Of a stretch of 64,000 nucleotides of DNA, positions 1,298 through 60,852 are shown one piece after another (position 1 is the first letter of the stretch; the number at the start of each line of letters is the position of its first letter). A program made the translations under genes and the position numbers. The notes under the pieces were generated by a model. It was not told the DNA's origin and searched no databases. It worked only from the letters and a program-made list of their open reading frames with translations. This DNA is from a virus (Duplodnaviria > Caudoviricetes): positions 256,001 through 320,000 of IMG/VR virus record IMGVR_UViG_3300037851_000141; one strand, written 5' to 3'.

Positions 1298-1696
1298 TTA
1301 TACCTTTACTTCAATCCAGGGTGTGTGAACCAATATTTGCCCGTCTTCCTTCTTTGTTGTTCTCGCTATGACTTTACACTTGAAACCAAATTTACGTAGT
1401 TTCTTACAAAGTGGTTCAAGTTTCTTGGCTGCCTTTTTGTATTCATATAATTCTTTTTCCGGTGATAATTCAATTGGGTCATGATTTGGATTCTCGCACC
1501 AAGGTCGATAATTATAAGATCCAAAAGAACTCTTCCAATAGATATCAAGTTCAACACTATCATGCTGAAACTGATCATCCGAAAATTTATTAAGAATGAT
1601 TTGTAATGCGGTTCCAAGTTCAGTATCAGTAATTTTATCAATGTACTCATCTGACCATACTTTAGTTAGATTCTTTATGATTTTGGCAATGTTCAT
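1298..1696 (-). CDS. Hypothetical protein between pncB and nadE
   Basis: 132-aa ORF overlapping the pncB stop and ending 3 nt before the nadE start. Confidence 0.7.
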   Translation of the reverse strand: MNIAKIIKNLTKVWSDEYIDKITDTELGTALQIILNKFSDDQFQHDSVELDIYWKSSFGSYNYRPWCENPNHDPIELSPEKELYEYKKAAKKLEPLCKKLRKFGFKCKVIARTTKKEDGQILVHTPWIEVKV

Positions 1697-2877
1697 AGCT
1701 GTTCTCCAAAGTGAATGTGTTTCATAATCTTAACCATAGTTTCATCACCAATGGCTTTAGTTGGCGTATCCGATAGCTTGACGACAGGAATACCATTAAC
1801 ATCCCGCAACTTGATAACCATATTCAACGGCTTGCTCTTTTCATTTACATTACTCTCTTTATTGAAATTTGATGTGAAAAAAGTACCAATTCCAAACGAA
1901 CATCCAATTTTACCACGGCAATATTCATTTATTTTTACCGCTTTTTCAACATCTAATCCATCACTGAAAATAATAGTCTTCAACTGCGGTTCAATCCGAA
2001 GACTCTTATAGTGAGCAATAATCTTATCAGTGAAAACAAAAGGATCACCCGAATCATGGCGAACCGAATCCCACAGTTTAGCCTTATCAAGCGTGAAATC
2101 TTTGAGGAACGAATCTATACCATAAGTATCCGGCAGCATCGTTCCCAAAGCACCTTGATAGACCTTAGCCCAATTTTCCATCAGATACTTATTAGGACGA
2201 TTCATGCTCTCCAATGCCGCAGTAGCTTGGATTAACTCATGGGCCAGAGTACCAATCGCCCTAACTCCATATTTCATAGCCAGATATACATTACTGGTTC
2301 CTACAAATTCGGCATATCGCTTCATTTCATGTACAACAATATCTTGAGTATCAAAGTTTCTACGACGACGAGTACCAAAATCAGCATATTTACAGCCACC
2401 ATATGCCAACTTCCTAGCATTATCCCTAGCTAAACCAATCTGATCATTCATATTCCAATCAGTATCAATCATCTTGAAATATACTTCCGAAATAATAGCC
2501 ATCAAAGGCACTTCCCATAGAATTGTATCTCGCCATTTACCAGCAATAGTCAGTTGAAGTTGGTCGTCATCATCCAACCAAACATGAACTTGCTTAGGAT
2601 TAAACCTAAATGCCGCTAAATACTGCCTAAACGTGACAGGAAGGAACGGTATAGTATTCTTGATAAAGTCATATTCGGTATCTTGAAGCCTCAGATTCTC
2701 CATCAAGTTAATCTGACGCTCAATCTCATCCCTAGCCTCTTTTGTAAACTTCATACTCTTATTGCGATTATTGAAACTATAAGTAACATTAGTTTCGGGA
2801 TACAGCGAGAGAACAAACCACATCATCGTGAATTTGTATAAGTCATTGTCCAGCAAGCTCGTAATGACCTGTTCCAT
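1693..2877 (-). CDS. pncB: Nicotinate phosphoribosyltransferase
   Basis: SLLDNDLYKFTM, DFGTRRR, GTLAHE, PDTYG, VRHDSGDP, IIFSDGLD, FGIGT, VKLSDTPTKAIGD. Confidence 0.95.
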   Translation of the reverse strand: MEQVITSLLDNDLYKFTMMWFVLSLYPETNVTYSFNNRNKSMKFTKEARDEIERQINLMENLRLQDTEYDFIKNTIPFLPVTFRQYLAAFRFNPKQVHVWLDDDDQLQLTIAGKWRDTILWEVPLMAIISEVYFKMIDTDWNMNDQIGLARDNARKLAYGGCKYADFGTRRRRNFDTQDIVVHEMKRYAEFVGTSNVYLAMKYGVRAIGTLAHELIQATAALESMNRPNKYLMENWAKVYQGALGTMLPDTYGIDSFLKDFTLDKAKLWDSVRHDSGDPFVFTDKIIAHYKSLRIEPQLKTIIFSDGLDVEKAVKINEYCRGKIGCSFGIGTFFTSNFNKESNVNEKSKPLNMVIKLRDVNGIPVVKLSDTPTKAIGDETMVKIMKHIHFGEQL

Positions 2878-9550: not shown

Positions 9551-9634
9551 GCCCGAATGGTGGAATTGGTAGACGCGAGGGACTCAAAATCCCTTGGCCG
9601 CAAGGTCGTGTGGGTTCGAGTCCCACTTCGGGTA
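9551..9634 (+). tRNA. tRNA-Leu(CAA), long variable arm, CCA not encoded
   Basis: GCCCGAA/TTCGGGT acceptor; GGGA-CTCAAAA-TCCC anticodon arm; GGTTCGAGTCC T arm. Confidence 0.93.
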
Positions 9635-9638
9635 CTAT

Positions 9639-9715
9639 GGGCCATTAGCTCAATTGGTTAGAGCATCCGACTCATAATCGGCAGGTTCTAGGTTCAAGTC
9701 CTAGATGGCCCACCA
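9639..9715 (+). tRNA. tRNA-Ile2 (CAU, lysidine type)
   Basis: GGGCCAT/ATGGCCC-A-CCA; CCGA-CTCATAA-TCGG arm as in ileX-type tRNAs; adjacent to tilS. Confidence 0.9.
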
Positions 9716-9717
9716 AT

Positions 9718-9752
9718 AAAAATCCTCAATCTTAACTGGTTGGGGATTTTTT
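9718..9752 (+). terminator. Intrinsic terminator after the tRNAs
   Basis: AAAAATCCTCAA...TTGGGGATTTTTT. Confidence 0.75.
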
Positions 9753-9803
9753 ATTTGACAAACCTCTTAAACACTATATACTCTGCCCAAGAAAGGCGCT
9801 TAT

Positions 9804-10415
9804 ATGATCCGGTTTCTTGGCAAGTTACCTCAAGGGAAGATTTATATTGCGTTATCTGGTGGTGCTGATTCAATGGCAGTATTATCATTTCTAAACAACG
9901 GTAATCGTCAAATTGAGTGTCTTTATTTCAATCATGATACTAAACACGGTCAAGATGCCGAATATTTTGTAAAAGGTTATTGTTCAACTCATAATATTGG
10001 TTTACATATTGGTCAGATTACTAAAGATAAAGAAAAAGGTCAGAGTGAGGAAGAGTATTGGCGTTTTCAGAGGTATGATTTCTTTTCTAAGTTTACTGAT
10101 GCTCCTATTGTTATGGCTCATCATTTGAACGACTGTGTTGAGACTTGGATTTTCACGGCATTACATGGTTCACCGCAATTGATTCCTTATATGAACGGCA
10201 ATGTTATTCGGCCATTCTTAATTACGCCAAAGAGTGAATTTTTACGTTGGAATGAACGGCATAATGTTCCATTTATTCAAGACGATAGTAATTTTGATAA
10301 TGTACATATGAGAAATTATATTCGTAACGTGTTGGTGCCAAATAGTTTACATGTTAATCCTGGTCTTGAAACTGTGATTAAGAAAAAGCTATTGTCTCAA
10401 GCCGTTTCTTCTTGA
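9804..10415 (+). CDS. tilS: tRNA(Ile)-lysidine synthetase (catalytic domain only)
   Basis: ALSGGADS PP-loop, HHLNDCVET, IRPFL, DDSNFD...RNYIRNVLVP. Confidence 0.92.
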   Translation: MIRFLGKLPQGKIYIALSGGADSMAVLSFLNNGNRQIECLYFNHDTKHGQDAEYFVKGYCSTHNIGLHIGQITKDKEKGQSEEEYWRFQRYDFFSKFTDAPIVMAHHLNDCVETWIFTALHGSPQLIPYMNGNVIRPFLITPKSEFLRWNERHNVPFIQDDSNFDNVHMRNYIRNVLVPNSLHVNPGLETVIKKKLLSQAVSS

Positions 10416-12179: not shown

Positions 12180-12776
12180 ATGAAATTCAAGTTTTTTGCT
12201 ATTGACCAACCACTGTATGATGCTTGGCGAAAATATTTAGGAGATTTAGATTTCATTTCAGTTCATTACGAGAATATATTTAATCAACAGACGGATTGTG
12301 TAGTTTCGCCGGCCAACAGTTTTGGATATATGGATGGTGGAATAGACGCATTATATACAAGATATTTTGGTCCTAAACTCCAGCAAAGACTTCAGCAAAC
12401 AATACAATGTAGTTTTCGTGGTGAATTATTAGTTGGTCAATCGATACTTTTAGAAACTGGCCACGAAAAAATACCTTACATGATATCGTCACCAACAATG
12501 AGATTACCAACTAAATTGCCAAAAAATACTGAAAATCCTTATTTGGCTATGCGAGCAACATTAATAAAATTGCTACAGAATCCAGATAAAAATATATCAA
12601 CGGTTAGTATTCCTGGTTTTGGTACTGGTGTCGGTGGTGTTGACCCTGTATTATGCGCTGCCCAGGTTCGTAGAGCAATTGATGATATATGGTTAGATAA
12701 GTTTACGTTTCCTACGAATTTTAATGATGCTGTATTACCATTTACGAATAGAATACCGGGAGATTATAATGACTGA
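12180..12776 (+). CDS. Macrodomain (Appr-1-p processing / ADP-ribose hydrolase family)
   Basis: VVSPANSFGYMDGGIDAL, SSPTM, IPGFGTGVGG. Confidence 0.9.
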   Translation: MKFKFFAIDQPLYDAWRKYLGDLDFISVHYENIFNQQTDCVVSPANSFGYMDGGIDALYTRYFGPKLQQRLQQTIQCSFRGELLVGQSILLETGHEKIPYMISSPTMRLPTKLPKNTENPYLAMRATLIKLLQNPDKNISTVSIPGFGTGVGGVDPVLCAAQVRRAIDDIWLDKFTFPTNFNDAVLPFTNRIPGDYND

Positions 12777-18851: not shown

Positions 18852-19505
18852 TTATAATCCAGGAGCCGCGTCTGATTTACGGTCATCATAAGGCATAGTG
18901 TAATCTGGACGACTCATTCTATCTCTTTGACCGTCTTCATCATCAGAATCATTCCAACCATTTTCATACGCCCAAGCAAGTATCGGTTCTTTTGGTTTAG
19001 GCCAAGTTTCGCTTGTTCTACGTCTTCCATCAATATAAGCTTTTATTAGTTTATATAATAGAGAATCTTCTGGTATTTTCTTTTCGAAGAAATCTCCAAG
19101 TTGATTATCAGATGGACGGAATTGTTTAGCTTGTGCGTAGAATTTCTTTTCGGTTTCAGATCCAGCACCTAATTGTGGAAGGTTGAGTGCTTCTGTCATG
19201 GCTGCTATTTCTTCTGGAGTTACATCAATCTTTTCATATGAGGCGTCAGGTAAGTTTTCGACCTTACCAAAATCATTAAGGGATTGAATGTATCCTTTAT
19301 CATACGCCATACGTTCTTTTTCATTAGCAGGAGGCATATAGTTTGGATAATCCTGTTGACCCTTTTCTTCCCAATTAGTTTTTGCTGTTGGTTGAATCTG
19401 TTTACGGTGTCTGACTGCTGCTCTTGTTAATCTTCCTTCGCCCATTATAGATTCGTTTAGTTGTTGCCAAGTCTTTTTTAGGTCTTTATATAGTTTGTCG
19501 TCCAT
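18852..19505 (-). CDS. Late-promoter protein, candidate internal virion protein
   Basis: TATAAATA at 19526-19533, AAAGGA RBS, N-terminus MDDKLYKDLKKTWQQLNE; start moved from 19526 to 19505. Confidence 0.65.
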   Translation of the reverse strand: MDDKLYKDLKKTWQQLNESIMGEGRLTRAAVRHRKQIQPTAKTNWEEKGQQDYPNYMPPANEKERMAYDKGYIQSLNDFGKVENLPDASYEKIDVTPEEIAAMTEALNLPQLGAGSETEKKFYAQAKQFRPSDNQLGDFFEKKIPEDSLLYKLIKAYIDGRRRTSETWPKPKEPILAWAYENGWNDSDDEDGQRDRMSRPDYTMPYDDRKSDAAPGL

Positions 19506-19525
19506 TTGAGTTATTCCTTTAGACA

Positions 19526-19533
19526 TATTTATA
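19526..19533 (-). promoter_or_regulatory. T4-type late promoter TATAAATA
   Basis: Exact octamer upstream of 18852..19505. Confidence 0.6.
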
Positions 19534-19545
19534 TGATTTTTGTTC

Positions 19546-19573
19546 TTGACTCTACATAAATAGCTGATAGAAT
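19546..19573 (+). promoter_or_regulatory. Promoter of the interrupted tRNA
   Basis: TTGACT-N16-TAGAAT, 20 nt upstream of the tRNA. Confidence 0.75.
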
Positions 19574-19592
19574 ATGCGCGTTGAAAAGATAT

Positions 19593-19713
19593 ACCCGTGT
19601 AGCTCAGATGGCAGAGCGAGAGCCTTCTGCGGAGATTATAGGAATATATTGGGTTCGAATCCCAATCTCTGCTCCAAAGCTCTAGGTCGGAGGTTCAAGT
19701 CCTCTCACGGGCG
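19593..19713 (+). tRNA. Interrupted tRNA, most simply Arg(UCU) (alternative register Trp(CCA)), with a 48-nt insert in the anticodon loop
   Basis: ACCCGTG/CACGGGC acceptor, GCTC/GAGC D stem, AGAGC/GCTCT anticodon stem, GGAGG-TTCAAGT-CCTCT T arm. Deleting 19629-19676 gives the loop CT-TCT-AA. Confidence 0.85.
19629..19676 (+). ncRNA. tRNA-Gly-like minihelix nested in the anticodon loop
   Basis: GCGGAGA / T-TATA-GGAA-TATA / TTGGG-TTCGAAT-CCCAA / TCTCTGC-T-CCA. Confidence 0.8.
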
Positions 19714-19719
19714 CTAACA

Positions 19720-19756
19720 AATAAACCCATCAGCATAACAACTGGTGGGTTTATTT
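19720..19756 (+). terminator. Intrinsic terminator after the interrupted tRNA
   Basis: AATAAACCCATCAG...CTGGTGGGTTTATTT. Confidence 0.75.
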
Positions 19757-19769
19757 GTTATCAGAAACA

Positions 19770-19777
19770 TATAAATA
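19770..19777 (+). promoter_or_regulatory. T4-type late promoter TATAAATA
   Basis: Exact octamer 5 nt before ATG 19783. Confidence 0.6.
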
Positions 19778-19782
19778 TCCAT

Positions 19783-20736
19783 ATGCCACAAGATGATAAA
19801 GTTTATAATCAATTAAAAGAAACCTGGAAGAACATTATTCAAGAAATGTTTATCCACGGTGATCCAAATAATAAGAATGTTATAGCGTTTAGAGATAGTA
19901 TTTGGTTATTAGCGAATGATATTCCGGCATCACTTGCCAATGAGATATATAAAAAAGTAGGAATTGATATCAAGTATAATGAAGATGCTGATTTTTTGGA
20001 TTTAGCGAATGAAATAATGAATGAAAAGCCGGATGTACTTACAGGGTCTATTAATGATAAAACCTTATTAGTTTATAGTTCAGGATCGTTTACATTAGAT
20101 CCGAAGTCATCTATTCTTATCAAAAAAGTTGTACAGCATCTCAAACTCAAAAAAGTTGATTATCAGGAAATGGAAGATCAATTTACAGTTCCCAAGAAGA
20201 AAATAACTGGTCAAGTTCCAGACATAGCATATCATGGAACGTCTCTCAATTATCTCGATAGCATTTTGAGACACGGATTAGAACCAAGAGGAAGTCAAAG
20301 CAATTACGAACAACAAGGCATTTACCACGATGATAAGATATTTTTCTCAACTAGATTTGGAGAAGCAAGTCATCACGCAGATCATACAGCAGCATTGAAA
20401 CAATCTAAACCTGTTGTTATTGAGTTTAGAATTCCAGATAAAAATCTTATAACTCCAGATTATGACATTGATATCCAAAGTGGTGAAACGTTGTGGTCAG
20501 ATACAAGAGATAGCAAATCGAAACTTACCAATCCAAAGAGTCAAAGCGCAAGTCAAGAGTTTGGAATATACGGTTATCAAGGAAAAATAATACCCCAACA
20601 TTTTAGATATTTTTACATAAACTTAAGTGGGGATGAATATTCAACGCTTAAAAGCTATAAGAGATTTACATACAAACAATTACAAAAAATTATTAACAGA
20701 TATGGTGACTTAGAATCTTATTTGGATTATTATTGA
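19783..20736 (+). CDS. ADP-ribosyltransferase-like protein with a candidate capsid-targeting N-terminus
   Basis: AYHGTSLNYLDSILRHGLEP, IFFSTRFGEASHHA, VVIEFRIP; N-terminus DDKVYNQLKETWKNIIQE. Confidence 0.6.
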   Translation: MPQDDKVYNQLKETWKNIIQEMFIHGDPNNKNVIAFRDSIWLLANDIPASLANEIYKKVGIDIKYNEDADFLDLANEIMNEKPDVLTGSINDKTLLVYSSGSFTLDPKSSILIKKVVQHLKLKKVDYQEMEDQFTVPKKKITGQVPDIAYHGTSLNYLDSILRHGLEPRGSQSNYEQQGIYHDDKIFFSTRFGEASHHADHTAALKQSKPVVIEFRIPDKNLITPDYDIDIQSGETLWSDTRDSKSKLTNPKSQSASQEFGIYGYQGKIIPQHFRYFYINLSGDEYSTLKSYKRFTYKQLQKIINRYGDLESYLDYY

Positions 20737-20797
20737 TACTTTAGTTGTTGATTTTAGATTCTGCTTGACTTTTATTTTTTGACTGTATAATGTGGTC

Positions 20798-21763
20798 ATG
20801 AACTTAGAGAATATCGGCTTTTACACTTTATCTGATGACCGGGCTAAGAACTCGTCAGATAAGACTCCATTACATCGGTGTGAACTACTGTTAACTAAAC
20901 GTTGTAATTTTAGATGTCCTTATTGTCGTGGAACTGGCCCTAAGCAAGAGGCATCATTAGAAGAAGCCCAAATGGTTGTTTCTGAGTGGGCTAAACATGG
21001 ATTGAAGAATGTTAGGTTTTCTGGTGGTGAACCTACAGTTTGGCCGCATTTGGTAGAATTGATTAAGCATACCAAGTCATTAGGTGTTGAGCGCATTGCT
21101 ATTTCTTCAAACGGTAGTGCGAGTAAGGAATTATATAAAGAGTTATGTGATTCTGGAGTAAACGATTTTTCTATTTCATTGGATGCTTGTTGTTCCTCTA
21201 CTGGTGATACTATGTCTGGTGTAAAAGGTGCTTGGAATACTGTTGTCGAGAATATTAAGTATCTTTCGACCTTGACATATGTTACAGTAGGTGTCGTTCT
21301 AACTAATAATAACATTGAAGAATTGGGTAAAATCATTGAATTTGCTCATAAACTTGGTGTTGCTGATATTAGAATCATTTCAGCGGCTCAAGTCTCAAAT
21401 GATATAATTCTGAATGTTGATGTGTCTGATGATGTAAAAATGAAGCATCCTATCTTAATGTATCGTTTGAAGAACTTATCTGTTGGAAGAAATGTTCGTG
21501 GATTAAAAGAAACTGACACCCACAAATGTCCTTTGGTATTAGACGATATGGCTGTTATGGATGGAAAACATTATCCTTGTATCATCTATATGCGTGAAGG
21601 TGGAGCCGCTATCGGTGAAGTTGGACCTAATATGCGTCAAGAGCGTTTAGATTGGTTCAATAAGACTGATACTCATAAAAATAAAATATGTAAAAATAAC
21701 TGTTTGGATGTTTGTCAAGATTTCAATAACAAGTGGGAAGAGTTTCGGAAAAATCCTGCTTGA
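20798..21763 (+). CDS. Radical SAM protein, substrate unknown
   Basis: CNFRCPYC (CxxxCxxC), FSGGEP, SSNG, ISLD; C-terminal Cys cluster. Confidence 0.9.
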   Translation: MNLENIGFYTLSDDRAKNSSDKTPLHRCELLLTKRCNFRCPYCRGTGPKQEASLEEAQMVVSEWAKHGLKNVRFSGGEPTVWPHLVELIKHTKSLGVERIAISSNGSASKELYKELCDSGVNDFSISLDACCSSTGDTMSGVKGAWNTVVENIKYLSTLTYVTVGVVLTNNNIEELGKIIEFAHKLGVADIRIISAAQVSNDIILNVDVSDDVKMKHPILMYRLKNLSVGRNVRGLKETDTHKCPLVLDDMAVMDGKHYPCIIYMREGGAAIGEVGPNMRQERLDWFNKTDTHKNKICKNNCLDVCQDFNNKWEEFRKNPA

Positions 21764-21787
21764 CATTCAGAAAATAGTCGGTAGAAT
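21760..21787 (+). promoter_or_regulatory. Promoter of the coiled-coil gene plus downstream RNA
   Basis: TTGACA-N16-TAGAAT; its TGA is the radical SAM stop. Confidence 0.75.
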
Positions 21788-21817
21788 AAACGCGCACAAA
21801 TAACAAAGGAATCAACC

Positions 21818-22294
21818 ATGGCTCGCATCACTCTCCGTAAGGCTCTCAATAAAAAGAACAAACTCATTGGTCGTATCAAGGAGTTGGAAACCCATATTGC
21901 TCGTAATTTCAACAAATCTATCCAATATGTTGATGGTCAGGCTCTTTCTTGCCGTCAAATGGATATAACCAAAGAATATAAGGAACTATTTGACACCAAG
22001 AATAAGCTGGTTCTTCTCAAGTCGGCGCTGGCTAAAGCTAATGTCGGTATCTATGAAAAGATTTATCGCATTGCCGAGTTAAAGGCTGATATTACTTGGT
22101 TGCGTGGACTGAACACAAATGCCGGTAAATCTGTAAACGAGTATGGTGACAAGACTTACATCACCGAAAGTACTCCATTCAAATCTGCTGAAGAAGTAAT
22201 GGCGATGATCAAATATGACGAAGGGTTGATTGAAACCTTCCAAGAGCAGATTGACGAATTCAACGGTGTGACTTTTATTGAACTTGATGACTGA
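21818..22294 (+). CDS. Coiled-coil protein resembling the DIP1984/DUF6847 family
   Basis: ITLRKALNKKNKL...LKSALAKANV...QEQIDEFNGVTFIEL matches the pattern as I recall it; not verified by HMM. Confidence 0.55.
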   Translation: MARITLRKALNKKNKLIGRIKELETHIARNFNKSIQYVDGQALSCRQMDITKEYKELFDTKNKLVLLKSALAKANVGIYEKIYRIAELKADITWLRGLNTNAGKSVNEYGDKTYITESTPFKSAEEVMAMIKYDEGLIETFQEQIDEFNGVTFIELDD

Positions 22295-22548: not shown

Positions 22549-23607
22549 TTATTCTATCTCTCCACCACCTAAACAAACATCATTAGCCAAGTCATAGAAT
22601 ACCGCATGTTGACCTGGAGCCGCAACTACAGGATCATCAGTTAAGACTTTTACAACAGAATCAGATTTGTATAACTTAGCCTTTGTACAGGTTCCACGAT
22701 AACGAACTTGACAAACGACTTCCATACCATCATAAAAAGGTCCAGGGAACAATTCATTTTTGATAGTAAAGTCATTAGTTGAAATCTTCTCAATAGTATC
22801 AACATATATTACATTATTATTGACATCTACCTTATCAACAAAGAGTGGAATTGGAGTACCGTGTAAGCCGATTCCTTTTCTTTGGCCTTTAGTCTTTCCC
22901 CAAACGCCATTATGTTGCCCAATTACCATATTCTTATATACAATAGGTCCACGCTTTTTCTGTAATCCACCAAAGTCAAATAGGAACTCACTAATATTGC
23001 CACCAGGGACCATACACAGATCGGTAGAGTCGGGTTTAGCGGCAACATGAATCCCGATCTTATTAGCAATCTCCCTAATCTCCATTTTAGTAGAGAATCC
23101 ACCTAAAGGGAAATGAATCTGTGGAATTATATCTTTAGGAATCCGATAGAGGAAGTAAGACTGGTCCTTTTTCAGATCCTTGGCCCTAGTGATAAAGAAC
23201 TGATCATCTATCTCTTTCGTATTAGCATAATGTCCGGTTGCTAAATGAACAGACCTATCACCATTTACAGCTTGGTAGAGGCTATTGATTTTAGTTGTGG
23301 CATTACAGAGGATACAAGGTGATGGAGTTAAGCCATTCTCGTAATCCTTTACCATTGGCTTTACAGTATGGTCCATAAAGGTCTGTTGAGCATCTATGAC
23401 CTTAAATTGGATACCTAAGTCATTGGCAATCTTTGAAGCATCTTGAGTAGCTTTAGCATTACAACAGGATGCCGAATTGATATTTTGATTACAACGCCAA
23501 AGGACAAGATTTACTCCAATGACGTTATATCCATTACTCTTTAGTAGGTGAGCAGATACAGCAGAGTCAACGCCACCAGACAGACCAACAGCCACAGTAA
23601 TAGGCAT
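22549..23607 (-). CDS. mnmA: tRNA 2-thiouridylase
   Basis: GLSGGVDSAV, ATGHYA, KDQSYFL, KPDSTDLC, QVRYR, APGQHAVFY. Confidence 0.95.
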   Translation of the reverse strand: MPITVAVGLSGGVDSAVSAHLLKSNGYNVIGVNLVLWRCNQNINSASCCNAKATQDASKIANDLGIQFKVIDAQQTFMDHTVKPMVKDYENGLTPSPCILCNATTKINSLYQAVNGDRSVHLATGHYANTKEIDDQFFITRAKDLKKDQSYFLYRIPKDIIPQIHFPLGGFSTKMEIREIANKIGIHVAAKPDSTDLCMVPGGNISEFLFDFGGLQKKRGPIVYKNMVIGQHNGVWGKTKGQRKGIGLHGTPIPLFVDKVDVNNNVIYVDTIEKISTNDFTIKNELFPGPFYDGMEVVCQVRYRGTCTKAKLYKSDSVVKVLTDDPVVAAPGQHAVFYDLANDVCLGGGEIE

Positions 23608-27571: not shown

Positions 27572-28579
27572 TCAGAAGTTCTTATCTAGGATGTTTACGA
27601 AGTTCTTGCGAATAAGAGTTTGTGCTTGTTCTCCGATTCGACTCTTAATGGCTTTTTGTTCATCCTTTTCAAGAGTCTCAAAGCCGGGATTCTCTTTGAG
27701 GAAGTCTTTATGAGCATCCTGCATGAGTCCACCAAGCAACTTACCGAAATCCTTACCAGTAATATCACCAATTTTACTGATGACATTCTTGAGACGATTT
27801 TCGGTAATGAATTGTGAGAATGAATCAAGGAGAGCAATAGCACCTTCAGACAACTTAAGTTCCTCTTTAGGTGGCCGAGGATGCTTACTCTCTTTACTCT
27901 TTTCACTCCACTTATCATTCTTATTCTTGAGGATAACACGACTGCCACAACCAAAGAAAAGAGGCTTGACGGGACGAAGTACAACACCCTCGCAGATATT
28001 TGGAGAGATTGGAGGTAAACCCAATTGCTCTGGAACCTTAGAATCGAACTCATTGGGGTACTTCATGGCGTCTTCAAATGAGCCACAGAATAAGGTCTTA
28101 GCATGAAGGAATCCGAATTGAGCGTACAACTTCTCAACAGTCAAGGCATCTAACCATTGACCATCAGCAACGATATCAAATCCATAGAAATAGTTATTTG
28201 GTCCATAGAATACACCCTTTTGTACTTTGGTTACTCCAGGGACTTTAGCGACATTAGGATGATCGTAGGAACCACCGCAAATCTCACCGTAAAGAGTCAT
28301 TTCCTGGCAACCAAGATGCTTATAAAGTGATTCAATCTTATCTTTATGTGATTCAGCAACACGATTTAGACCATTGAAATTCTCGCCAGGAGCTAAGAAA
28401 CAACTCCGCTTTCCAAGAATGATTTGACCATCTGGAAGCCGTTTGATTTGAGCCGAACTGCCATGTACTTTTTCCCCAACAACCCACTGTCCAGCAGAAA
28501 AGCCTAATTGGACAATCTTGTTAATGGTTTCGGTACGGTAAGCGTTTTCAATGTCAGGGAATGAGACGAAGGTAGGCAT
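27572..28579 (-). CDS. RNA ligase, Rnl2 family
   Basis: VGEKVHG (motif I), LYGEICG, FYGFDI, EGVVLRP, ILKNKN; C-terminal helical domain. Confidence 0.9.
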   Translation of the reverse strand: MPTFVSFPDIENAYRTETINKIVQLGFSAGQWVVGEKVHGSSAQIKRLPDGQIILGKRSCFLAPGENFNGLNRVAESHKDKIESLYKHLGCQEMTLYGEICGGSYDHPNVAKVPGVTKVQKGVFYGPNNYFYGFDIVADGQWLDALTVEKLYAQFGFLHAKTLFCGSFEDAMKYPNEFDSKVPEQLGLPPISPNICEGVVLRPVKPLFFGCGSRVILKNKNDKWSEKSKESKHPRPPKEELKLSEGAIALLDSFSQFITENRLKNVISKIGDITGKDFGKLLGGLMQDAHKDFLKENPGFETLEKDEQKAIKSRIGEQAQTLIRKNFVNILDKNF

Positions 28580-45659: not shown

Positions 45660-45947
45660 TTAGTGGACAGATTGTGATATTTGTAAGCTTTTTAGTACAG
45701 CTTGTTTATTTATTTTATGTTGTTTAATATTTTCCATAAAAGGTGATATAAAGAATAATTTGGATTCTAAACATAGTGTATCTAACTTATGAGAAAGGTT
45801 ATACTCTACAAACAAATATAAACTATCTAATAATTCATATCGTTCTAATCTAATGTAAGTATTTGGAATATTGAAACAATTTAAGATTCTATATTGAAAG
45901 GACTTATAGATTTGTTTTGGTATATACAATCTAATCCTTCCAGTCAA
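45660..45947 (-). CDS. C-terminal-tag family member 27
   Basis: Ends KINKQAVLKSLQISQSVH. Confidence 0.72.
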   Translation of the reverse strand: MTGRIRLYIPKQIYKSFQYRILNCFNIPNTYIRLERYELLDSLYLFVEYNLSHKLDTLCLESKLFFISPFMENIKQHKINKQAVLKSLQISQSVH

Positions 45948-47142
45948 ATTTTTGGTAGTTTAGACAGATCCACTTATTGAAACGTTCGGGATCATTGTTC
46001 TTTAGGATATCGTCTTTATATTGGAAGAAGTAAGACCAGAAGATTTTGGGTGCATGCTTTTGAACAGCCATAGCATAATCTTTTTGAGTTGAAGGCTGAA
46101 GTTCCCGTAGAGTTGCTTCCGCTTGTTGAGATTGAGTTAGAAGATTAGCGACTTTGGTTTCGAGAGATTTAGCGAATTCCTTCATAGTGTCAACGAGAAC
46201 AGGAAAGATATCATCAAGAGTATGGTTGAAGAAAGAATCAATAACAACATTACGAGTATGCTTGATATCACCCCCACCTACTGAATGGAGAGATACATAG
46301 CGGTTTGATTTGATTTTCGCAATTGGCTTATTACCTTGATAGACAACAAACCCTTCAGAGTATTCAACACCATCTTGCTCAATGGCTTCAATACCTTTAG
46401 TGTTAACCCAATAGCGAAGATCATCAAGAGTGATAATATCCAGTTCATAAAGCATCTTCTTCCAAGGTAGACGAAGATTAGATGCTCCATTTGAAAGAAG
46501 ATTAATTACTATATCATCAAGAGGATCAACATAAGTCCCGTATTCATTATGCCTTACAGCGAGAAGCACCACTTGATTTTGAGGATACTTGGTGACAATA
46601 CGGTTTTCATTACAAGCAAGTTCAAAGATATAGGTATAGTTAGTATCCAGAAAATTAGCGAGTTGAGTGTTTGAGAGTCCAATAGTCTTGAAGAATAACT
46701 CAGAGAATGAAAACTTATAATCCCCGACATTACCAGTAGGGATTGAACCAAGAGTAGAAGCTTGCCAGTTGTTGGTGATAGGATTATGATAAAGGATAAT
46801 ACAAGACCCATCAACCTTTTCATAAATAGCGAGTTGATTTTTGATAAGATTGAAATCAGCTTCATTGAATATAGGACAGAACCCCTCATGCTGATTAAAG
46901 AACTTATTGAAAGGACGAGCAACATATTTCCAACCAGATTGAGACTGATAGAGAATAGCTCCCCGACATTCAGCAGTCAAGGGTCGAACGAATTTAGCCT
47001 GTAGTTGATCATACTTGAATTGATATAACCCATTGTGAGTATTGACATTTACGCCGAATTCAGTAATAAACTTTTCCTTTATCTCATCCAGAGTAAAGGC
47101 TGAGTTGAAATACTTGTTGAGATATTCTTGAAGTTGAGACAT
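45931..47142 (-). CDS. RNA ligase, T4 Rnl1-like
   Basis: ECRGAIL, ARPFNKFFN, YEKVDGS (motif I), YIFEL, EGFVV, KIKS..Y. Confidence 0.88.
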   Translation of the reverse strand: MSQLQEYLNKYFNSAFTLDEIKEKFITEFGVNVNTHNGLYQFKYDQLQAKFVRPLTAECRGAILYQSQSGWKYVARPFNKFFNQHEGFCPIFNEADFNLIKNQLAIYEKVDGSCIILYHNPITNNWQASTLGSIPTGNVGDYKFSFSELFFKTIGLSNTQLANFLDTNYTYIFELACNENRIVTKYPQNQVVLLAVRHNEYGTYVDPLDDIVINLLSNGASNLRLPWKKMLYELDIITLDDLRYWVNTKGIEAIEQDGVEYSEGFVVYQGNKPIAKIKSNRYVSLHSVGGGDIKHTRNVVIDSFFNHTLDDIFPVLVDTMKEFAKSLETKVANLLTQSQQAEATLRELQPSTQKDYAMAVQKHAPKIFWSYFFQYKDDILKNNDPERFNKWICLNYQKFDWKD

Positions 47143-55877: not shown

Positions 55878-56318
55878 TTATTGGATTTGAATGGTATGAA
55901 TCATGGAGTCTGCGAGTTGGAATTTATGTTCAGATTGGAGTTGAGCAAAGAGAATGGGTCGCATACTAAACACCCGTTCTCTGGCTTTTTCAATAGTGGA
56001 GAACACAGCAGGAACTAGATCCATAACGATATAGACAGTAGTAAGTTGAGATTCAGCCTTTTTAAGTTGAGGATTTCGGAGTTCACAAAAATCATTCCAA
56101 CTACGTATTGCCCAATCAGTATCATGACAGGTGTATGCGGAAGCTAAACATTTTGGGCAATGTACATAAAAACCATTTTCTATGATTATTTCAGGATCAG
56201 GGTGGCCGCAGTTATAGCAGGGACGAGCATCCATGTTGTTTCCTTTACGCCAGTGATTATACAAGAGAATGGAATTAGTCAAGAAAGATTCGTTCCATCC
56301 TCTTATTTTGGGCATCAA
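55878..56318 (-). CDS. Lar-like zinc-binding protein
   Basis: PCYNCG...VHCPKC...AIRSWN; true start probably MDARPC. Confidence 0.55.
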   Translation of the reverse strand: MMPKIRGWNESFLTNSILLYNHWRKGNNMDARPCYNCGHPDPEIIIENGFYVHCPKCLASAYTCHDTDWAIRSWNDFCELRNPQLKKAESQLTTVYIVMDLVPAVFSTIEKARERVFSMRPILFAQLQSEHKFQLADSMIHTIQIQ

Positions 56319-56727
56319 TCACATGCTCTGGAACCCGACGATCAATTGCCCTTTGACTATTGTACATTTTCGCAACACTATCTGAACAAGAAACCGACAC
56401 AACCCGAACCTCATAACCATATTGCTTCGCCAGATTGATATAGAAACTGGCTTCCTTATGGGTCGTATTAGTGTTGTCCACGATGATAGCAGGTTGTCTT
56501 TGCTTCATCAGATCAGTCACCCAATCCTGATTCCACCTGTGAGCCTCACCCAAACGCTTCTGGTCAAACTCATACTTCTCACCACCACTATTGATATACC
56601 AAAAATTGTCAGTCGAACAAATCTGACAGTTGGTTTTCAAGACAGTTTCATAATGAGTCTTGAGTGCTTCGGCAACGAAACTCTTGCCAGACGCCGAAGA
56701 ACCCTGCATGAGTACGAGAACCTTCAT
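56275..56727 (-). CDS. Polynucleotide-kinase-like P-loop protein (Pnk kinase domain / AAA_33)
   Basis: MQGSSASGKS, ICSTDNF, IIVDNTN, RRVPEHVI. Confidence 0.85.
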   Translation of the reverse strand: MKVLVLMQGSSASGKSFVAEALKTHYETVLKTNCQICSTDNFWYINSGGEKYEFDQKRLGEAHRWNQDWVTDLMKQRQPAIIVDNTNTTHKEASFYINLAKQYGYEVRVVSVSCSDSVAKMYNSQRAIDRRVPEHVIDAQNKRMERIFLD

Positions 56728-60549: not shown

Positions 60550-60852
60550 TGGTGGGACGAGTGGGGTACGATCCCACGACCTAATGCTTCTTACAGACAC
60601 CATCTTTCGATGAGCATTTCTGCTGTCTGCTTGGACTTTCTCTTAATCTTCGGCATTATCCGGTCAGATCCTCCGTGTAAAGTCTCTACACTTGCCCGAT
60701 AGATATTTTACTATCTATCTGCTAGCTCGGGATTGCCATCAGCATTATCTGTTAAGGTTTCCCCGAATTAGCGGAGTTTTCAATTAGGATTTCTCCTAAA
60801 GGTTCCAATTTAGTTCAAAAGGCATTTGCTCTACCTACTGAGCTATCGTCCC
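60550..60852 (-). tRNA. tRNA-Lys(UUU) interrupted by a group I intron after position 36
   Basis: GGGACGA/TCGTCCC-A-CCA; AATGC/GCATT stem; exon join gives CT-TTT-AA; atypical T loop ATCGTAC. Confidence 0.88.
60590..60816 (-). mobile_element. Group I self-splicing intron (tRNA-type, IC3-like), 227 nt, no ORF
   Basis: P1 UUUU|GA...UUGGAA; core CTAATTCGGGGAAACC, GGCAATCCCGAGC, GTGTAGAGACT, AAGAGAAAGTCCA; terminal G. Confidence 0.88.

Follow-up and report, generated by a model that had tools for sequence, protein, structure and literature searches.

Results

In the window analysed here (64,000 nucleotides, positions 256001–320000 of the 331,849-bp record of an uncultured virus from a freshwater metagenome, labelled G000), a tRNA-Arg(UCU) gene at 19593–19713 is interrupted in its anticodon loop by a 48-nucleotide (nt) insert that is itself shaped like the top half of a tRNA and ends in CCA. 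Judging from the DNA, this insert is likely to be a genuine intron that is excised by some enzymatic route. In the full model that we propose, RNase P cuts on the 5′ side, an enzyme of the RNase E or RNase Z type cuts after the CCA, and either of the two phage RNA ligases (Rnl1, Rnl2) joins the halves. We put the probability of this model at roughly 0.45.

Together, the two exons (Table 1) form a full cloverleaf with all four arms, both in the Rfam alignment and by direct reading. The Rfam tRNA model scored 48.8 bits on 19593–19713 (gathering score 29; E-value 2e-7 in a search of the whole window) and located one insertion only, some 50 nt long, in the anticodon loop. This bears out the original prediction of an insert in the anticodon loop of a tRNA with cloverleaf exons. 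Default ARAGORN was blind to the gene, which was found only with introns allowed. Excision of exactly 19629–19676 leaves the loop CUUCUAA with the Arg anticodon UCU, whereas ARAGORN chose a shifted excision, 19626–19673, which leaves CUCCAAA (Trp). The 3′ exon does not encode the CCA of the tRNA, and the spliced body is nearest to the Arg(UCU) tRNA of a second phage, G002 (73% identity). The gene is framed by a promoter-like site and a 19-bp hairpin. The promoter and terminator that had been ascribed to the locus thus both reappear as sequence predictions; the upstream site would act as an extended −10 promoter, and the hairpin, a likely terminator, was not among the output of a simple terminator scan.

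Table 1. Positions of the interrupted tRNA-Arg(UCU) gene, its insert and related features in the window (numbered from its first nucleotide).
Feature	Position	Strand	Description	Basis
Minihelix intron (likely), 48 nt	19629–19676	+		direct reading, fold, covariance model R1, covariation
Acceptor-like helix, 5′ strand	19629–19635	+	GCGGAGA	
Linker and motif	19638–19644 (AUAGGAA)	+	UU, then AUAGGAA	
T arm	19649–19665	+	preceded by UAUA; stem UUGGG/CCCAA, loop UUCGAAU	
Acceptor-like helix, 3′ strand	19666–19672	+	UCUCUGC	
U73-like base; CCA	19673; 19674–19676	+		
5′ exon of tRNA-Arg(UCU)	19593–19628	+	acceptor 5′ strand, D arm, anticodon stem 5′ strand, C32 U33 U34 C35 U36	Rfam, minimum free energy fold
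3′ exon of tRNA-Arg(UCU)	19677–19713	+	A37, A38, anticodon stem 3′ strand, variable loop, T arm, acceptor 3′ strand, discriminator G	
Putative sigma-70-like promoter	19546–19573	+	TTGACT, 16-nt spacer with TG, TAGAAT; extended −10	10/12 matches
19-bp perfect hairpin, likely terminator	19715–19760	+	directly 3′ of the tRNA-Arg gene	−26.4 kcal/mol, z −9.2
Rnl2-family RNA ligase	27572–28579	−	candidate sealing enzyme	Pfam RNA_ligase 1.3e-20, T4_Rnl2_C 3.9e-20
Rnl1-family RNA ligase	45931–47142	−	candidate anticodon-loop sealing enzyme	Pfam RNA_lig_T4_1 2e-14
Small P-loop kinase (AAA_33)	56275–56727	−	no phosphatase domain; possible polynucleotide 5′-kinase	role inferred
tRNA-Lys(UUU) with group I intron	60550–60852	−	227-nt intron without an open reading frame, after position 36	Rfam Intron_gpI 49.1 bits, E-value 2.3e-11

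The anatomy claimed for the insert (a 7-bp helix, a T arm with the loop TTCGAAT, a U and CCA) was confirmed by direct reading. The helix, 19629–19635 with 19666–19672, contains a G3·U70 wobble, and the insert scored 55.6 bits against covariance model R1. In the minimum free energy (MFE) fold of all 121 nt, the stack of insert helix and T arm is nested in the anticodon loop of a molecule that keeps its cloverleaf arms; in both the MFE and the centroid fold, the anticodon stem is followed by a 5/6-nt internal loop and then by a 7–8-bp insert helix. Folding energy alone was not significant (z −1.6 and −1.9), so the case rests on the tRNA model score and on covariation among homologues. With its acceptor-type helix stacked on a T arm and followed by U and CCA, the insert has the design of an RNase P substrate (such a helix, on a T arm or hairpin, then a single base and CCA), which 10 of the 11 homologues share. 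The AUAGGAA motif may mimic the GG of a D loop docking on the T loop and thereby keep the elbow that RNase P reads. An earlier reading of this region as a UAUA-GGAA-UAUA hairpin is possible in this copy only: homologues keep AUAGGAA, but its flanks do not pair. Likewise, the Gly-like acceptor identity is not conserved, and acceptor identity elements differ between copies. We found no support for charging with Gly, for a decoy role or for anticodon switching.

Intron-aware ARAGORN, run on the whole G000 genome, found four further interrupted tRNA genes with inserts of 46, 45, 35 and 227 nt. The three short inserts lie in genes for tRNA-Gln, tRNA-Thr and tRNA-Gly and were found without using the motif. 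Those of 46 and 45 nt follow the same plan as 19629–19676, including AUAGGAA and the T arm, and in that of 35 nt a second hairpin closes a 6-bp helix, after which comes ACCA. When the whole genome was scanned for the motif, this design turned up only in these genes. The 227-nt insert, in tRNA-Lys(UUU), is a group I intron that scores slightly below the Intron_gpI gathering score of 50.

All four short-insert tRNA genes exceed the Rfam tRNA threshold (42–59 bits), with scores similar to those of intact genes. The 21 intact tRNA genes of G000 serve 15 amino acids; the five interrupted ones add Gln, Lys, Gly, Thr and Arg(UCU), which leaves Asp as the sole amino acid missing. U34 is present in 5/5 interrupted but in only 6/21 intact genes (Fisher p 0.007). 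None of the four short-insert tRNAs encodes its own CCA, and in three of the four the insert has one. When the Gln exons of G000 and G002 were compared, most stem positions differed and pairing was kept throughout. Perfect stems, the filling of gaps in the tRNA set and the paired divergence of exons argue for real splicing of what would be functional tRNA genes.

To find homologues, we combined pattern scans of IMG/VR and JGI metagenomes with covariance model R1 and intron-aware ARAGORN. Homologous inserts were present in at least four other uncultured phage lineages, and free-standing copies in three. In G002/G003 (contigs of about 100–113 kb), inserts interrupt genes for tRNA-Gln, tRNA-Asn, tRNA-Arg(UCU) and one more tRNA; two of these inserts are 22-nt microhelices followed by GCCA, one of them in Arg(UCU). 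Further inserts were found in L393/L391, L400/L517 and L488/L501, and a longer variant in G001. Free-standing CCA-ended minihelix copies, outside any tRNA, occur in three complete phage genomes: L129 (G059, complete at 41.9 kb), L119 (G058) and L190/L039 (G060). The free-standing gene of L129 is followed by three repeats of a motif of about 25 nt (CGAGGA..AAACCUGGCUAAAAAU), and that of G060 lies about 2 kb downstream of a gene of the RNA ligase family. Among 185,579 bacterial and archaeal genomes, one per species, there were 40 pattern matches, none of them with a fully complementary 5′ strand.

Ten intronic copies were aligned in a register set by hand; of their 120 helix positions, 118 form standard pairs, with 3–5 pair types at 10 of the 12 positions of the helix. 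A control with swapped 3′ strands gave a mean of 64.5 and a maximum of 88. A search of related phages for conserved, covarying inserts had been suggested with the original prediction, and such inserts do exist in other phages. With free-standing copies included, 154 of 156 positions pair, but these copies had been preselected for at least 6/7 acceptor pairs. The search patterns also prescribed the GGAA motif and the last T-stem pair; neither constraint was used in finding the three G000 paralogues. From the alignment we conclude that the structure of the insert is under selection.

Close relatives of G000 were not found by blastn against INPHARED phages, nor by protein-seeded searches with the gene next to tRNA-Arg and with the CCA-adding enzyme. 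For an intron-less allele of the G002-type tRNA-Gln, the exact spliced junction had no match in IMG/VR.

The boundaries of the inserts follow a simple rule. In 10 of 11 inserts, the unit whose removal leaves a 7-nt loop begins with the first helix base and ends with NCCA, and all loops left under this rule have U33 and a purine at 37. The loops restored are CUUCUAA in the tRNA-Arg gene of the window, CUUUGGA in tRNA-Gln of three lineages, CUUCCAA in tRNA-Gly, CUGUUAA in tRNA-Asn, UUUCUAA in tRNA-Arg of G002, and in addition UUUGGGA and, twice, CUUAUAA. ARAGORN often shifted the boundaries and then called Trp, Pro and Tyr for genes that the boundary rule, the tRNA class and the discriminator base assign to Arg, Gln and Asn. 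A purine follows the helix in 11 of 12 inserts, and in 5 of the 8 tabulated first a U precedes the 5′ boundary.

Comparison of individual copies points to exchange. G000 and G002 share 76% identity in their Gln inserts, whose sites are 1 nt apart, and removal of either gives CUUUGGA. The Gln exons of G002 and of L400/L517 differ by 1 nt and carry different inserts at the same site: the AUAGGAA-type insert of G002 and the AAAGGAA-type insert of L400/L517 are 67% identical, with entirely different acceptor helices. The intronic copy of L488 is 81% identical to the free-standing copy of L129. At the locus nearest in homology to that of the window, the same flanking genes are present and the tRNA is absent. 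Given their occurrence in various tRNAs, at slightly varying positions of the loop and as free-standing genes, the inserts are probably a mobile or exchangeable family.

We then considered the enzymes that intron-bearing phages encode. Pfam matches confirmed that the window holds both an Rnl1 and an Rnl2 gene, as had been claimed; the Rnl1 of G000 is 47% identical to that of G002. RNA ligases co-occur with the inserts in every sufficiently complete intron-bearing genome: Rnl1 and Rnl2 in G000, Rnl1 and an Rnl2-family ligase in G002/G003, and an Rnl2-family ligase in G056. Rnl1 was not found in G056, and G001 has none. G000 also encodes a CCA-adding enzyme. Profile searches of the G000 genome found no RtcB, EndA-type endonuclease, RNase Z-like protein or 2H esterase; as a control for EndA, PF01974 matched in 4 archaea and was absent from the phage genome. 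Homologues of the small kinase in Table 1 are encoded 1.6–2 kb from an RNA ligase gene of G002 and from a weak, sub-cut-off ligase-like match in G001.

Proposed splicing mechanism

In our model, the pre-tRNA would fold into a cloverleaf within which a second acceptor/T-arm stack, with a terminal NCCA, is nested. Bacterial RNase P would take the nested stack for a pre-tRNA and cut at 19628/19629, leaving a 3′-OH on the 5′ exon. A hydrolytic 3′-end endonuclease, for which RNase E or an RNase Z/BN-type enzyme is a candidate, would cut at 19676/19677 after the CCA and leave a 5′-phosphate on the 3′ exon. Cuts by RNase P and by enzymes of the RNase E or Z type yield 3′-OH and 5′-phosphate ends, which are those that Rnl1 and Rnl2 join, and cleavage directly after CCA has also been reported for some RNase Z/BN enzymes. 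The acceptor and anticodon stems would keep the exons in place, and the product would be a nicked anticodon loop, the natural substrate of a T4-type Rnl1. Sealing of the nick by Rnl1 or Rnl2 would then give the loop CUUCUAA, and the CCA-ended 48-nt minihelix would be set free as a by-product.

The least that bacterial RNase P needs in a substrate is a helix with RCCA behind it, and the enzyme cuts at the first helix base; both RCCA-dependent cleavage of very small substrates and cleavage directed by guide sequences have been described (PMC4693268, PMC12710915). RNase E matures Escherichia coli proline tRNAs by a one-step cut right after CCA (PMC5291269, PMC8860583), and T4 Rnl1 seals breaks in anticodon loops (PMC3400036). 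The proposal that tRNA maturation enzymes and a phage ligase act together is backed by the boundaries in 10 of 11 inserts, by covariation, by the Arg gap in the tRNA set and by the co-occurrence of ligases, whereas splicing itself and the enzymes behind it are read from DNA.

Several observations weigh against this model. The insert of the G000 tRNA-Thr is the exception to the boundary rule, with the tail AA in place of NCCA; cleavage after CCA therefore cannot account for every insert. In G001, as in a published example from Lak megaphages, about 30 nt of extra intron lie ahead of the tRNA-like unit, and a single RNase P cut would not make the 5′ splice site there. Having no T arm, the 22-nt microhelix inserts would be poor substrates for RNase Z, and the 3′ cut, for which there are candidate enzymes only, must be exact to the nucleotide. 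Small 5′-kinases encoded near ligases hint at 5′-OH ends and hence at a different cutting chemistry. Furthermore, Rnl1 also occurs outside intron carriers: R1 had no match in 49 other viral records that encode this ligase, which means that Rnl1 does not predict introns and that its co-occurrence with them concerns few lineages. A search of sequencing runs for the locus returned only two DNA metagenomes, with nothing on the tRNA in their contigs. Finally, clean insertion of a discrete element would also produce a unit whose removal restores the loop, without any splicing.

Alternative explanations

A genuine intron might instead be cut by a dedicated, still unrecognised transesterifying endonuclease of phage or host origin and be joined by heal-and-seal repair in the T4 or fungal style. 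The ends would then be a 2′,3′-cyclic phosphate and a 5′-OH, healed by the AAA_33 kinase and a phosphoesterase and sealed by Rnl1. This route would explain the small P-loop kinases that lie near ligase genes in G002 and G001 and of which G000 has one, as well as those boundaries that do not suit RNase P (the AA tail of the Thr insert and the 5′ extensions in G001). It would also place Rnl1 in its known context, since T4 Pnkp and Rnl1 work in this way (PMC3400036). However, neither EndA nor RtcB, a 2H esterase or a fused phosphatase was found in the phage genome, and the ADP-ribosyltransferase-like gene next to the tRNA is not a Tpt1. Moreover, the conserved element, a helix plus RCCA, is a target of bacterial RNase P and has no known role for any anticodon nuclease. 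We consider a heal-and-seal route unlikely.

It is rather improbable that the insert is not spliced at all and reached the loop as a mobile element or through ligation, for instance as a CCA-ended RNA that was ligated into a broken loop and copied back into DNA. The tRNA would then be dead, or serve as a processing scaffold for a released minihelix that is the functional product. The existence of free-standing copies, one of them the 81% match to an intronic copy, fits such an origin, as do the two unlike inserts at the same site of Gln exons that differ by 1 nt and the nearest homologous locus, which has the same flanking genes and no tRNA; insertion of a discrete unit would also account for the boundary rule. 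Yet the interrupted genes keep perfect cloverleaves that score like intact genes, and they are the only ones that G000 has for Gln, Gly, Thr, Lys and Arg(UCU). Between G000 and G002, the Gln exons have diverged at most stem positions with their pairs kept and a homologous insert in place. In addition, the fifth interrupted gene carries a self-splicing group I intron, which shows that an interruption at this site is compatible with function.

Excision of 19626–19673, to give tRNA-Trp(CCA), or a switch between Arg and Trp anticodons is very unlikely: the CCA at the end of the insert and the AA after it make the Trp reading possible, and ARAGORN prefers it, but G000 already has an intact tRNA-Trp(CCA) and otherwise lacks Arg(UCU), the shifted boundaries cut inside the conserved helix and break the rule that 10 of 11 homologues follow, and Trp is not among the eight tRNAs of the genome nearest to the spliced body, whose closest match is the Arg(UCU) of G002 at 73%. 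Hardly any weight attaches to a small self-cleaving or self-splicing ribozyme, an idea suggested by a conserved structured RNA within a gene that needs precise excision, given that no Rfam ribozyme or intron family matched even at permissive thresholds, that hairpins or stacked helices of 22–48 nt are too small for a group I core, and that the conserved parts are those of a tRNA elbow.

Neighbouring genes and other RNA features

Just downstream of the tRNA-Arg gene, the gene at 19783–20736 gave weak Pfam matches to PARP and Tpt1, which had suggested a fungal-type 2′-phosphate pathway. We rejected it as a splicing factor. Its AlphaFold model (pLDDT 86) resembled pertussis S1, DarT and Tpt1 alike (TM about 0.3–0.5) and is thus generic, the family is without the invariant arginines of the Tpt1 tetrad Arg-His-Arg-Arg, and the closest homologous locus keeps the neighbours but has no tRNA. 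The region 19783–22294 encodes this ADP-ribosyltransferase-fold protein, a radical SAM enzyme and a protein of 158 amino acids, a trio that is kept in the metagenomic relative L265. Homologues of the ADP-ribosyltransferase-fold protein also adjoin T4-like capsid genes (L267). Elsewhere in the window there are genes for an NAPRTase (1693–2877, minus strand), a macro-domain protein (12180–12776) and an MnmA-type tRNA 2-thiouridylase (22549–23607, minus strand); genes for NAD salvage, ADP-ribose handling and U34 modification thus share a region with interrupted U34 tRNAs.

At 9551–10415, genes for tRNA-Leu(CAA) and a tRNA-Met-like(CAU) are directly followed by a TilS-type PP-loop ATPase, an arrangement that suggests conversion of the CAU tRNA into a tRNA-Ile that reads AUA. 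Inside the tRNA cluster of G000, a YrlA-like Y RNA matched at L075:6461–6588 (genome 180461–180588) with 47.6 bits against a gathering score of 69.

Further tRNA features were seen in other phages. G004, a 322-kb phage whose Rnl1 is 40% identical, has a tRNA match of 102 nt (L348, 135059–135160, minus strand, 56 bits) with an insert of about 30 nt that contains ACCA and does not fit the boundary rule; part of this insert can pair with the D and anticodon strands of its own tRNA. In G001, two tRNA-Thr(UGU) genes (L106:1557–1711 and 2559–2710) carry inserts of a different type, 82 and 79 nt long, which share the blocks CUACAGA, GGGUA..AUGGGAGAA and ACGUCCGAAGCGU and match no Rfam family. G002 encodes a tRNA with the anticodon CUA (88095–88170, in L101), a possible amber suppressor, and its tRNA cluster contains a match to the abiF RNA family (L105:843–880; 41.6 bits, gathering score 37).

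Discussion

We tentatively propose, with a little more reserve than for the locus itself, that large phages splice tRNAs with RNase P, an enzyme of the RNase E or Z type and a ligase, and that they do so on mobile introns shaped like tRNA top halves that also occur as free-standing genes. The prevailing view credits bacteria and their viruses with self-splicing tRNA introns only and regards enzyme-dependent tRNA splicing as an archaeal and eukaryal trait. If true, the proposal would add a third mechanistic class of tRNA intron, and the maturation of certain U34 tRNAs (Arg, Gln, Gly, Thr, Asn) would depend on phage enzymes. It would also give phage Rnl1 and Rnl2 a constitutive job other than repair; a review of jumbo phages treats RNA ligases solely as repair enzymes (PMC7824862). 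In any case, standard bacterial tRNA finders miss such genes or misassign their anticodons, so phage tRNA repertoires and the arguments on codon usage built on them are biased.

Literature word searches for such introns found nothing. However, the original statement that no description was known goes too far: Devoto et al. (2019) described tRNA introns of Lak megaphages that they called "enigmatic", one of which "itself may encode a tRNA", and gave no mechanism (PMC6784885). Their Table S6 includes an example of 93 nt with a 7-bp acceptor-like helix and a T arm (PMC6784885). Like the inserts described here, those are short, are not group I introns and lie in anticodon loops of tRNA genes of very large phages, but in the example about 26 nt precede the tRNA-like unit, and the tail is CUA instead of NCCA (PMC6784885). 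The Lak phages have Prevotella hosts and come from the gut, and neither a boundary rule nor an analysis of covariation was given (PMC6784885). The insert in our window, by comparison, is a compact, armless 48-nt minihelix whose ends would themselves be the splice sites. That is, tRNA-like introns of this kind were already known in phages, though barely characterised, and the splicing mechanism would be new if confirmed.

Archaeal and eukaryal introns of the bulge-helix-bulge type resemble the inserts in being short, in lying in the anticodon loop, in lacking a ribozyme core and in using protein enzymes and an RNA ligase. They are cut by the EndA/Sen endonuclease and joined by RtcB or Trl1, whereas the phage has neither EndA nor RtcB. 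The bulge-helix-bulge itself, two 3-nt bulges around a 4-bp helix, does not occur in the inserts, which are tRNA-shaped, end in CCA and belong to a bacterial setting. In addition, the inserts lie at positions 34/35 to 36/37, and archaeal and eukaryal introns at 37/38. Group I introns of bacterial and phage tRNAs share the region of insertion, as the tRNA-Lys(UUU) of G000 illustrates, but they exceed 200 nt and have a catalytic core, while the inserts measure 22–48 nt and match no intron family; Intron_gpI, the model that detects the Lys intron, had no match at 19500–19800 up to an E-value of 1.

With the T4 system of PrrC, Pnkp and Rnl1, our model shares the ligase family and a break in the anticodon loop of a folded tRNA (PMC3400036). 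The T4 break is damage done by a host nuclease, whereas in the phage described here the structure of the gene itself would programme it, and there is no phosphatase-kinase fusion. The inserts also have the helix of 6–12 bp followed by RCCA that characterises RNase P model substrates and external guide sequences (PMC4693268, PMC12710915). Those substrates are engineered or minimal, whereas the inserts are natural. We know of no natural case in which flanks cut by RNase P are ligated again. In the tRNA punctuation of mitochondrial transcripts and in the release of mascRNA from MALAT1, a tRNA-shaped element recruits RNase P and RNase Z and thereby defines RNA ends. There, the flanking RNAs are not rejoined; here, the flanks are the two halves of another tRNA.

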